DNA of 64,000 nucleotides from a bacterium (lineage in GTDB: Bacteria; UBA8248), in contig CBDCRP010000003.1 in the NCBI GenBank assembly GCA_965221165.1, forward strand, positions 1,792,001 through 1,856,000. Direction: 5' to 3'. Positions within the stretch are counted from its first letter, which is position 1. The number at the start of each line of letters is the position of its first letter. A model generated the notes under the pieces. That model worked only from the letters and a program-made list of their open reading frames with translations, searched no databases and had not been told where the DNA came from. The position numbers were made by a program, and so were the translations under genes. Below are positions 53,525 to 56,651 of the stretch, piece by piece.

Positions 53525-53917
53525 TTGCCGTTTTACAGAATATCCGAGATGGAAACGAAATACGTCGACATGGGCAAGGCCCAGACGCAAAGCGTTGCCG
53601 GGGAGTTCATGAAGGCTGGTATGATCACCTATCCCGAAGGCGGCGGGCCGCCGCCTCATTTTCACCCGAACGAGGAGCAGTTTCTTCTGGTGATGGCGGG
53701 GGAGGCGAACGTGATTCTGGGTGAGGAAACCCGCCTCGTTGGTCCCGGCGATTTGGTCCACATCCGCCGCAACGAGCGCCACGGTCTTCGCATCATCAAG
53801 GGGCCGTTTGTCTTCTTCACCGTGAAGAGCCCCCCAGGGGACGGCGATCTATATCAAGACTACAACAAGGCCGAAGACGCCGATGAGGCGCGAATAAAAC
53901 TGGAATCCACCTCATAA
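53525..53917 (+). CDS. Cupin domain protein
   Basis: PHFHPNEEQ, GDLVHI..N.RH; TTG start with GGAG RBS. Confidence 0.85.
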   Translation: MPFYRISEMETKYVDMGKAQTQSVAGEFMKAGMITYPEGGGPPPHFHPNEEQFLLVMAGEANVILGEETRLVGPGDLVHIRRNERHGLRIIKGPFVFFTVKSPPGDGDLYQDYNKAEDADEARIKLESTS

Positions 53918-53948
53918 AAGTATCAACCTGAAGACAAGGAGATTGTGC

Positions 53949-54334
53949 ATGCCCTTTTACAAAATAGAAGACTTCCAAAAGGCTCCTCGGCGGTGGGTCC
54001 CGCCACCAGCCACGCGACAGCGGGCGAGTTGATGAAGGTGGGCTGGGTGATATACCCCCAGGGAGACGGCCCGCCGCCGCACTTTCATCCCAACGAGGAG
54101 CAGTATATCCTGATGCTCGAGGGCAAGATGAACATGATCTGCGGCGAGGAGGTGCGCGAAATCGGCGCAGGCGACTTGGTCCACATCCCCAGAAACACGC
54201 GCCACGGCATCCACATCACCGAAGGGCCGGCGAAGTTCTTCGCCGTCAAAAGCCCGGCGGGCGACGGCACGCTGGATCAGGACTACAACAAGGCGTCGGA
54301 TGCGGACGAGGTGGCGGAGCGTCTCAAGAATTAG
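53949..54334 (+). CDS. Cupin domain protein (paralog of upstream gene); apparent 1-nt deletion near 53972
   Basis: ATG at 53949 reads MPFYKIED like the paralog MPFYRISE; the body (PHFHPNEEQ, DYNKA.DADE) continues in the shifted frame. Confidence 0.78.
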
Positions 54335-54347
54335 CAAACTGAACCAG

Positions 54348-54384
54348 AAAAGCCGGTGGGCCGCCCCACCGGCTTTTTGTTTTT
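54348..54384. terminator. Bidirectional rho-independent terminator
   Basis: AAAAGCCGGTGGG-CCGC-CCCACCGGCTTTT hairpin with T-tracts, between convergent genes. Confidence 0.85.
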
Positions 54385-54909
54385 CTACTGCTGCGCCTGG
54401 GCCGCCATCCGTTTTTTTCTGAACTGAACGGCCTGGATGACATCCTGCCAGACGAGACGACCCAGCGGGCCCGAACTGTAGAGCGAGATGTTCACCTTGC
54501 CGTCGGGTGAGAGCAGAAAGTTGGTGGCGTGAAGAAACGGTCTCGGCTTCTCGCCCGCCTCGGGGGCGTAGAAAGCGCCCGTCATCTCGGATATATAGGC
54601 GGGGTCCACGCTGTGCCCCACCGGAAAGTTCACCTTGCTCGCCTCGATGGACTGCACCGCCTCACTTTCCGGATCGGTGGACGCCGCGACGACCTTGATG
54701 CCTTCGGTTTCGAGCCTTTCTCCCGCCCGGGAGAATCCCGCCATCTGGGCGAGGCAGTAGGGTCACCAATGGCTGCGGTAGAACAGGACAACGCCCCACG
54801 AACCCCGCAAATCATCGGGCAGGGCGATTTTTCCGCCACCCACCTTGGAGATACGCAACCTCGGGAAATCATCCCCGGTATCCAGGAAGAACCGGTTCAC
54901 TTTCGGCAT
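54385..54909 (-). CDS. Peroxiredoxin-like AhpC/TSA (redoxin) protein, predicted selenoprotein (UxxC; TGA at 54763-54765)
   Basis: Continuous frame MPKVNRFFLDTGDDFP...WGVVLFYRSHW-TGA-PYCLAQ...SSGPLGRL; GGAG RBS; TGA sits where the first Cys of CxxC is expected. Confidence 0.86.
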
Positions 54910-55068
54910 GATGCGCTCCACTCTTGTTCAAGAAATAATCGAGTCCGTTTCATGTACTCGGGATGTTACCGCTCCGGCGGAACGATGAAAACCGGCCTGC
55001 TGAATCTGCGCACAAAATAACACTCCCTCAATGTCGGCCATCGAGGGAGTGTTATAAAAGGTTCGCTA

Positions 55069-55569
55069 CTAGTTCTGGGCCGCCATCATCTTCTTATAAA
55101 ACTGAACCAGACCCAGGACGTCCTGCCACACGAGCCGGCCGATGGGCCCGCTGCTGTAGACGGCCACGGCGACCGTTCCATCGGGCTTTAAGACATAGCC
55201 CGTGCTGTGAATGATCTGGCGTTTTTCCTCATAAAAACAACCGGTGAGCTCTGAAATCTGCTTGTTGTCAAGGCTATAGCCCACAGGGAAGTTGATTCCG
55301 CATTCATCCATCGTTCCCTTGGCTTGCTCCTCCGTGTCCACGGAGGCGGCAACAACTTTAACACCCTCTTCCTTGAGCTTCGCAGCCCTATCGAAGGCCG
55401 TAAGTTGCTGCTTGCAATAGGGTCACCAGTGACCTCGATACAGCAGAACCACCCCCCAGTCGCCCGCGAGATCGCCCGGAAGGGAGATTTTACCTCCCCC
55501 TACCTGGTCCACCTCGATGCCCGGGAAGGCATCTCCCGAATCGATCATCTTGTCCGTCATACGTGGCAT
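55069..55569 (-). CDS. Peroxiredoxin-like AhpC/TSA (redoxin) protein, predicted selenoprotein (UxxC; TGA at 55423-55425)
   Basis: Continuous frame MPRMTDKMIDSGDAFP...WGVVLLYRGHW-TGA-PYCKQQ...SSGPIGRL; joins ORF-track pieces 55423-55605 and 55069-55341. Confidence 0.88.
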
Positions 55570-55802
55570 CAACGCGCCCTCCGAAAATGAATGAAGCAAA
55601 AACAAGCCTAAAATAATAAGCCCCGAACGCGATCATTTATACCCGCGCAATAGGGATATTTCAAACCGAATCGAATCTCTCTTACAACATCGCATCGATA
55701 ATTCCTACGATTTCTCCTCCCATGGTCTTGACACCGAGAGGCTTGGTTTTTAGCATAGGCCTACTTTTTCTGAAGGCTCGCAATGAGCGCAGGAGACTCT
55801 CA

Positions 55803-56081: not shown

Positions 56082-56288
56082 ACGCGCCGGCGGGTTTCGC
56101 CGCCGCGCAAACGCTCAGCAGAACATTCCCGGATGCGAGCCAAGCGCGTCTTCGAATTGGCATGTCCATTTGCGTGAAACGCACACTCCTTCCATCAGCA
56201 CCATCCCTTGGCTCCTGGCTGTTTTTTGATGCTAGAATGAGACTCTTTGAATTTATTCCCGAAACACCCGACGCTGAGGAGATGGACC

Positions 56289-56651
56289 ATGCGCGCCAAG
56301 AGATATAATTGGAATGAAATGCCCGAGGAAGCCGTGACCGATACTTTTTCGAGAAAAATGGTGGTGGGCGAAAAAGAAATGCTTTGCTGGCTCAAACTTA
56401 AACCCGGCTGCCTGGTACCCATGCACAGCCACGAGAACGAGCAGATATCCCACGTCATCAAGGGAAGACTCCGGTTCTTCATCGATGATGAATCCGTGGA
56501 AATAGGCCCCGGGGAAACGCTCCTCATCCCGCCGAACGTGCCCCACGCCGTGGAAGTCGTGGGCGATGAAACGGCGATAGATTACGACATCTTCAGCCCT
56601 ATCCGCGAAGACTGGCTCGATGGGAGCGATAATTACTTAAGAGACGAATAG
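56289..56651 (+). CDS. Cupin domain protein
   Basis: VPMHSHENEQ, IPPNVPH, DIFSPIREDW. Confidence 0.88.
   Translation: MRAKRYNWNEMPEEAVTDTFSRKMVVGEKEMLCWLKLKPGCLVPMHSHENEQISHVIKGRLRFFIDDESVEIGPGETLLIPPNVPHAVEVVGDETAIDYDIFSPIREDWLDGSDNYLRDE

Follow-up and report, generated by a model that had tools for sequence, protein, structure and literature searches.

Two adjacent UGA-containing genes of the Prx-like family, probably encoding selenoproteins, in an uncultured bacterial lineage

Peroxiredoxin-like (Prx-like) thiol:disulfide oxidoreductases are an already predicted family of selenoproteins, described in PMC9312934 and PMC13188914 by the Pfam domain PF00578, a UxxC or UxxU motif and one or two selenocysteine (Sec, U) residues. 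The tables of both papers credit the prediction of the family to Kryukov & Gladyshev 2004, and family counts are given in PMC1794560. Here we describe two neighboring minus-strand genes, copy A and copy B, found in a 64,000-nucleotide stretch of DNA from an uncultured bacterium (hereafter the window), which fit as additional members of this family. A preliminary description made from the sequence alone had called UxxC variants a recognised bacterial selenoprotein class, and according to PMC9312934 and PMC13188914, the class has indeed been in print since 2004. The two genes share with the family an AhpC-TSA domain, a UxxC motif that opens with Sec, UxxU variants among relatives and homologs with cysteine (Cys) in its place, and for the family as for the two copies the function is a predicted one. 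They differ in forming a conserved tandem pair whose copy B flips between UxxU and UxxC among close species, and in coming from an uncultured lineage, with public relatives labelled Nitrospinota or Tectomicrobia. The proposed link to the family, whose type sequence is WP_010940744.1, rests on the domain, the motif and a UxxC ortholog (L134, 44% identical) in a metagenome-assembled genome (MAG) labelled Geobacteraceae. A literature search combining Nitrospin*, selenoprotein and peroxiredoxin returned no match.

Copy A (55569..55069, minus strand) starts at an ATG at 55569 and ends at a TAG at 55071..55069, encoding 166 residues, and copy B (54909..54385, minus strand) starts at an ATG at 54909 and ends at a TAG at 54387..54385, encoding 174. 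Each frame is interrupted at codon 49 by a TGA, at 55425..55423 in copy A (CAC TGG TGA CCC TAT TGC) and at 54765..54763 in copy B (CAT TGG TGA CCC TAC TGC), so that translating the TGA as Sec gives H-W-U-P-Y-C in both. Comparison of these read-through frames with the open reading frames (ORFs) called under translation table 11 shows that the standard code splits copy A into fragments of 60 and 90 residues and copy B into fragments of 52 and 119; beyond the single TGA in each, the window copies contain no other stops or frameshifts. The proteins share 54% identity across 171 columns (E 1e-71), and the positions, lengths, shared codon and paralogy given in the preliminary description all hold, as do its finer observations of a YRGHW/YRSHW difference and of extra residues in the APEAGEKPRP region of copy B, where there is a five-residue insertion relative to copy A. 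Our reading, to which we assign a probability of roughly 0.9, is that both are genuine selenoprotein genes in which UGA is read as selenocysteine.

Selenocysteine machinery and conservation of the UGA codons

The genome examined (3.69 Mb in 3 contigs) contains the complement of Sec genes that the preliminary description had expected. Profile searches detected selA, selB and selD at 564, 384 and 330 bits, respectively, every score lying above its curated cut-off, together with a single tRNA-Sec that scores 75.9 bits on RF01852 (cut-off 47) and is called by ARAGORN as tRNA-SeC with anticodon tca; the lower-scoring matches to this model proved to be normal tRNAs for Leu, Ser and Arg. The selD gene (L019; genome G000, C2:975065-976027, minus strand) itself holds one in-frame TGA, in GG-U-GSK, with a 7-bp hairpin 14 nucleotides (nt) downstream. 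TGA is not reassigned in this genome. It is the commonest stop codon: among stop-to-stop frames of 250 codons or more it closes 1816 of 3950 across the genome and 34 of 72 within the window. The tRNA-Trp has anticodon cca, and a tca anticodon is limited to tRNA-Sec. The earlier judgement that genome-wide reassignment was unlikely is thus upheld.

If UGA were instead decoded as Cys or another standard residue, either by a tRNA-ReC/SelC*-type Cys tRNA dependent on a selenocysteine insertion sequence (SECIS) or by near-cognate read-through, the products would be ordinary CxxC redoxins. Such decoding is brought to mind by the enrichment of tRNA-ReC-like tRNAs in genomes with UXXU hydrogenases, reported in PMC13582414, and by copy A, in which neither shuffle tests nor RNAalifold demonstrate a SECIS (see below). 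The window genome, however, has one tRNA-Sec-type gene only, alongside a full Sec synthesis pathway in which selD is itself UGA-containing. Across the order, tRNA-Sec is present in 41 of 44 genomes, the three without a match being 67%, 88% and 90% complete, and exactly one match is found in 37 of the 44, UxxU carriers among them; second, weaker matches above the cut-off occur in G002 and G033 only, and G014 and G041 have two equal-scoring copies each. We therefore regard decoding as a standard residue as improbable and prefer decoding as Sec.

The gene pair is conserved well beyond the window. In a six-frame search, 40 of the order's 44 genomes contained the TGA-bearing tandem pair (E <=1e-10), and 47 of 51 genomes at the level of the phylum gave a match (E <=1e-15). 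Each full-length match holds at least one internal TGA, and the stop-free rows are partial pieces at contig ends. Because the same frames carry the same TGA codon in these 40 genomes, the pair of TGAs is not a chance occurrence. Thirty loci from several genera (the window and 29 others) were read in detail: copy A is W-TGA-P-Y-TGC in all 30, and copy B, found in 29 of them, has TGA at codon 49 in every case. Median ratios of nonsynonymous to synonymous substitution rates (dN/dS), calculated by the Nei-Gojobori method for the window against each relative, are 0.074 upstream (codons 2-48) and 0.108 downstream (codons 53-110) of the TGA in copy A, and 0.235 and 0.197, respectively, in copy B. The region 5' of the TGA is under purifying selection like the remainder of the gene, which excludes both decay and a start 3' of the TGA.

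The first motif position also alternates between Sec and Cys codons, as had been anticipated. In a homolog scan that took one genome per species, kept 80 loci and identified the motif by regular expression (three loci gave no motif match), 98 gene copies with the C-terminal family signature comprised 58 with TGA..TGY, 12 with TGA..TGA and 28 with TGY..TGY, so that the first position is TGA in 70 copies and TGC or TGT in 28 distant homolog copies. The Cys forms (WCPYC) carry record titles of Mycobacterium, Pseudonocardia, Streptomyces, Modestobacter, Bradyrhizobium, Mesorhizobium and Actinomycetota MAGs, placing Cys at the same codon in Actinomycetota and Alphaproteobacteria. The MAGs that supply the TGA forms are titled Nitrospinota, Nitrospinaceae, Candidatus Tectomicrobia, Entotheonella, Rokubacteria/Methylomirabilota, Terriglobia, Myxococcaceae, Nitrospirota and Geobacteraceae. 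In a large protein collection, full-length homologs 44-55% identical, often called 'peroxiredoxin', likewise carry WCPYC.

That the genes are hidden from routine annotation, as first described, is borne out by the public protein sets, in which the closest relatives appear only as C-terminal fragments of 91-110 residues or as full-length proteins with W at the Sec column. The latter (P0003, P0005 and P0077) probably reflect TGA translated with the Mycoplasma-type code (table 4). One database homolog, P0010, has Ser at the Sec column (P-W-S-P-Y-C).

Broken frames under table 11 and fragmentary calls in relatives are also what one would expect if the TGAs were inactivating nonsense mutations and both genes decaying pseudogenes. 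Yet the same TGA stands in 30/30 and 29/29 loci of several genera, dN/dS is 0.07-0.24 on both sides of it, the window copies are otherwise uninterrupted, and distant homologs have Cys at exactly this column. These results together with the Sec machinery sustain the original proposal of selenocysteine rather than decay, and make pseudogenes very improbable. That the TGAs are sequencing or assembly errors for TGC or TGT is a negligible prospect, given that TGA is found in more than 40 separately assembled genomes and that contigs of sequencing run X1, which is possibly the source sample, agree across both TGAs.

In the comparison with sequencing runs, in which uncovered parts carry no meaning, those X1 contigs (records 5 and 7) span both TGAs without any alternative letter, and none of the 40 differences listed, out of 120, falls on either TGA. 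Two contigs of run X23 (records 16 and 22), ~90% alike, also bridge both TGAs. X21 and X23 are RNA-library runs represented by contigs only, and since contig assembly does not show transcription, the bridging contigs are at most a weak hint of transcription in a ~90%-alike relative. In all four runs, the two RNA libraries included, contig depth rises ~5- to 10-fold or more (to 146-270) over ~35 nt round the copy B TGA (window 54753-54790), with loose ends leading into unlike sequence on both sides; the nucleotide core at 54753-54790, TGA included, is common to homologs of many other organisms.

Fold and predicted redox centre of the two proteins

Both copies match Pfam AhpC-TSA (PF00578) well above its cut-off of 26 bits, with 68.7 bits (E 5.8e-19) for copy A and 61.6 bits (E 9.1e-17) for copy B, and Pfam Redoxin matches both as well. 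No NCBIfam equivalog comes near its cut-off for either copy, the peroxiredoxin equivalogs, whose cut-offs lie at 140-456 bits, yielding 17-40 bits. For copy A, an AlphaFold2 model based on alignment A1 (mean predicted local distance difference test score, pLDDT, 95; predicted template modelling score, pTM, 0.91) has a helix at 50-61 that begins right behind residue 49 and a final helix at 148-165. When this model was submitted to Foldseek, the best structural matches, with template modelling (TM) scores of 0.81-0.83, were peroxiredoxins of the Bcp4, AhpC2 and Prx6 types (for example PDB 3hjp, 6q5v and 5ovq), whereas ResA gave 0.68-0.70. By sequence, on the other hand, the closest solved relatives are ResA proteins (E 2.7e-9), and the WCPHC of 3c71 aligns to W-U-P-Y-C.

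The active site was examined in an alignment of copies A and B with the three canonical peroxiredoxins and two TlpA-like proteins of the same genome. In canonical peroxiredoxins, a triad of Pro, Thr/Ser and Arg surrounds the peroxidatic Cys. Cys52 of the two copies lines up with the peroxidatic Cys of the three canonical genes in a column that does not vary. Sec49 stands both where PxxxT/SxxC has its Thr/Ser and where WCxxC has its first Cys; Arg45 is found in place of the Pro, and the Arg column holds Ser or Ala in copies A and B. The fold matches and the alignment of Sec49 and Cys52 thus describe a peroxiredoxin-type scaffold bearing a thioredoxin-type U-x-x-C centre, a combination that agrees with the account of the Prx-like family in reviews. 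The preliminary description had put Sec at the catalytic Cys, which stands insofar as Sec49 corresponds to the first Cys of CxxC but needs amending with respect to peroxiredoxins, in which the peroxidatic position is that of Cys52 and Sec sits at the Thr. Because Sec replaces this Thr and the Pro and Arg are missing, a CxxC-type oxidoreductase is the likelier identity than a true peroxidase.

Proteins of the ResA/TlpA group (for example PDB 3c71 and 1st9) resemble the two copies in their thioredoxin-like core and in a CxxC that aligns residue by residue with U-P-Y-C. They are, however, membrane-anchored and extracytoplasmic, whereas copies A and B begin without a hydrophobic N-terminus (MPRMTDKMIDSGD and MPKVNRFFLDTGD), as judged by inspection of the sequence with no signal-peptide predictor, and carry a longer, peroxiredoxin-type C-terminal part. 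On the NCBIfam ResA model NF002854, whose cut-off is 170 bits, they reach only 38.1 and 28.4. A further comparison is with the eukaryotic selenoprotein SelL, which has a Prx-like fold and a UxxU diselenide motif with two Sec three residues apart, like the UxxU orthologs of copy B. SelL is named in PMC2398784; the window genes differ from it in being UxxC, and the NCBIfam model NF040769 ('SelL-related redox protein') gives copy B 27.4 bits against a cut-off of 120, copy A being unlisted.

Taken together, the most plausible scheme is one in which a single tRNA-Sec/SelB system translates both UGAs as selenocysteine, yielding two presumably cytoplasmic AhpC/TSA-fold redox proteins of ~19 kDa with a Sec49-Pro-Tyr-Cys52 centre. 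Sec49, just ahead of the first long helix, would be the attacking residue, as in thioredoxin-type CxxC, and Cys52 its resolving partner, so that the centre would cycle between a selenol/thiol and a selenenylsulfide. The proteins would then act as thiol:disulfide (selenol) oxidoreductases and not as classical peroxidases.

Hairpins behind the UGAs and the UxxU/UxxC mosaic

In bacteria the SECIS lies inside the coding sequence, while in eukaryotes it lies in the 3' untranslated region. A hairpin of 5-7 bp that starts 13-15 nt past the U of the UGA and carries G as its first or second loop nucleotide occurs in four other UGA genes of this genome, namely selD and three of the TUPP type. This is the arrangement of the bacterial SECIS consensus as given in PMC13582414.

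Two successive hairpins follow the UGA of copy B. The first, H1 (54753..54737, minus strand; CUCGCC CAGAU GGCGGG), spans nt 13-29 counted from the U of the UGA, begins 9 nt past the UGA and is a SECIS candidate at the canonical position. The second, H2 (54735..54718, minus strand; UUCUCCC GGGC GGGAGAA), spans nt 31-48 and has a G-first apical loop, but it lies 37 nt from the first UGA (28 nt from the second UGA in the UxxU form). Among 23 distinct copy B sequences, pairing over H1 and H2 together reaches 93%, and the covariation score is 0.137 versus 0.068 for shuffled alignments (none of 500 shuffles as high), and control windows slid along the sequence are 50-71% paired. H1 is 87% paired, with three of its six pairs varying on both sides, and H2 is 98% paired, its stem being identical in 22 of the 23 sequences, synonymous positions included. 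In keeping with this, the synonymous-codon entropy of copy B falls to 0.12 over codons 56-65 compared with ~0.9 elsewhere. H2 is missing only from the long-branched L083 copy and is equally invariant in UxxC and UxxU forms, and it is therefore not required for the second UGA alone. SelB could bind either H1 or H2.

For copy A, the region at nt 13-48 after the U of the UGA (55413..55378, minus strand) holds three candidate SECIS hairpins. One at the canonical position is intact in outgroup orthologs (AAGCAGC AGUUG GCUGCUU in Rokubacteria-labelled loci; 79% paired, with some covariation), and the window copy keeps only three of its six pairs; the alternatives lie at nt 26-43 and nt 30-48. A second dip in synonymous variation was observed in copy A at codons 71-85 (window 55359-55315; entropy 0.33 versus ~0.9), ~70-110 nt past the UGA and deeper than the dip right behind the UGA. 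Rfam matches to mir-4899 and ar35 were discarded as chance-level (E 0.26-0.29, far under the gathering scores).

Codon 52 of copy B (54756..54754, minus strand) is TGC in the window, but this state is not fixed: 14 of 29 loci have W-TGA-P-Y-TGA (UxxU) and 15, the window included, have W-TGA-P-Y-TGY. A protein tree of 70 rows, from which the damaged short copy B rows of L031 and L037 were dropped, divides, with 100% support in the Shimodaira-Hasegawa-like approximate likelihood ratio test (SH-aLRT), into a B clade and an A clade that also takes in the single-copy orthologs from other phyla. The tree is unrooted within B. Over the 31 B rows the U/C state of codon 52 requires at least six changes, four of which are forced by the starred branches alone. 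The deeper branches of the B clade are mostly UxxU and the window copy sits among UxxU sequences, a pattern that fits repeated recent Sec-to-Cys changes, in what would be the prevailing direction. UxxU copies with an identical H2 were also noted among L106 (a Nitrospinota-labelled MAG), L085 and L090; such copies extend to marine small-genome relatives, and in L106 the gene is apparently single-copy.

The same two-UGA decoding question, with a U/C mosaic among close relatives, arises for the UXXU Group 4 [NiFeSe] hydrogenases of PMC13582414, which treats bacterial UXXU decoding as still an open question. Those hydrogenases belong to an unrelated protein family, and their tRNA-ReC-like tRNAs have no counterpart seen here, no second tRNA-Sec-like gene accompanying UxxU in the 44 genomes of the order that were scanned. 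It is conceivable, although on balance we doubt it, that the copy B lineage was ancestrally U-P-Y-U and diselenide-forming, that H1 and H2 make up a module letting one SelB system insert both Sec residues, and that the window gene is a recent Sec-to-Cys revertant that has kept this module.

Several results weigh against the interpretation of both genes as selenoprotein genes. The insertion of Sec at both UGAs is deduced from the genome and not from selenium detected in the proteins. The main gap in the case is the SECIS of copy A, for which there are candidates only: pairing in the hand-drawn hairpins at nt 15-29, 30-48 and 26-43 is not above that of shuffled controls, and RNAalifold finds no consensus structure in 33 copy A sequences. 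For copy B, the H1 loop CAGAU lacks a G at position 1 or 2, unlike the consensus in PMC13582414. Folded as single sequences, the 50-60 nt that follow each UGA do not outperform shuffled versions (z -0.5 to -1.3), and an Rfam scan of 54300-55700 at E up to 1 detects no SECIS family. Copy B is damaged in two relatives of the same genus, by an internal deletion that leaves 128 residues in L031 and by a frameshift after ~117 codons in L037, with an intact copy A adjoining it in both, so copy B is dispensable in some lineages. Lastly, when the ORFs of 51 loci and the window were clustered, Rokubacteria- and Methylomirabilota-labelled orthologs included, no gene was conserved across phyla, outside the organism's own family, that would hint at a partner or a substrate.

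Neighbourhood and further UGA-containing genes

The pair is flanked on one side by convergent cupin genes, a cyclase and hydrolases, and on the other by a cupin gene and SPFH/Band-7 genes; in the clustering just described, these cupin, SPFH/Band-7, cyclase and hydrolase neighbors are conserved only within the organism's own family. The small cupin-domain genes lie on the plus strand at 53525-53917, 53945-54334 and 56247-56651, two of them being tandem paralogs convergent with copy B. The space that separates the nearer convergent cupin gene from copy B holds a bidirectional terminator-like hairpin (54347..54378; 14 pairs in the scan, 8 of them G-C, with a T-run). Another terminator-like hairpin, read by eye, lies 3' of copy A (55055..55011, minus strand), with an 11-bp stem (AACACTCCCTC/GAGGGAGTGTT), a 13-nt loop and then a T-run (ATTTTGTG); the hairpin scan, whose loop limit is 8, does not list it.

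The genome contains 13 AhpC-TSA matches, of which seven have an in-frame TGA. Apart from copies A and B, these are five frames with one TGA each (genome G000, C2:479296-479655 and C2:321464-321877 on the minus strand; C3:720591-720956, C3:400627-401034 and C3:1430324-1430737 on the plus strand). Two of the five encode UxxC proteins whose N-termini are hydrophobic (GHF-U-VIC and FA-U-INC), and three are paralogs with A-I-T-U-P-P-F/Y, a motif known from deiodinase-like selenoproteins.

The Prx-like family itself is not new, and the value of the locus for specialist follow-up is modest, being limited to two features of copy B in the relatives, its mosaic of UxxU and UxxC forms and its twin hairpins. 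The UxxU/UxxC switches and the invariant H2 of the relatives are relevant to the bacterial recoding of UGAs that lie close together, and if the copy B lineage was indeed ancestrally UxxU with H1 and H2 as its insertion module, close species whose sole difference is a TGA or TGC as codon 52 would provide a natural test set for bacterial UXXU decoding. For the organism, TGA codons in seven of its 13 AhpC/TSA matches point to a heavy investment in selenium-based thiol redox chemistry. Standard pipelines mis-call both genes, and since their orthologs are mis-called in public protein sets as well, the redox repertoire of this uncultured lineage is under-described.

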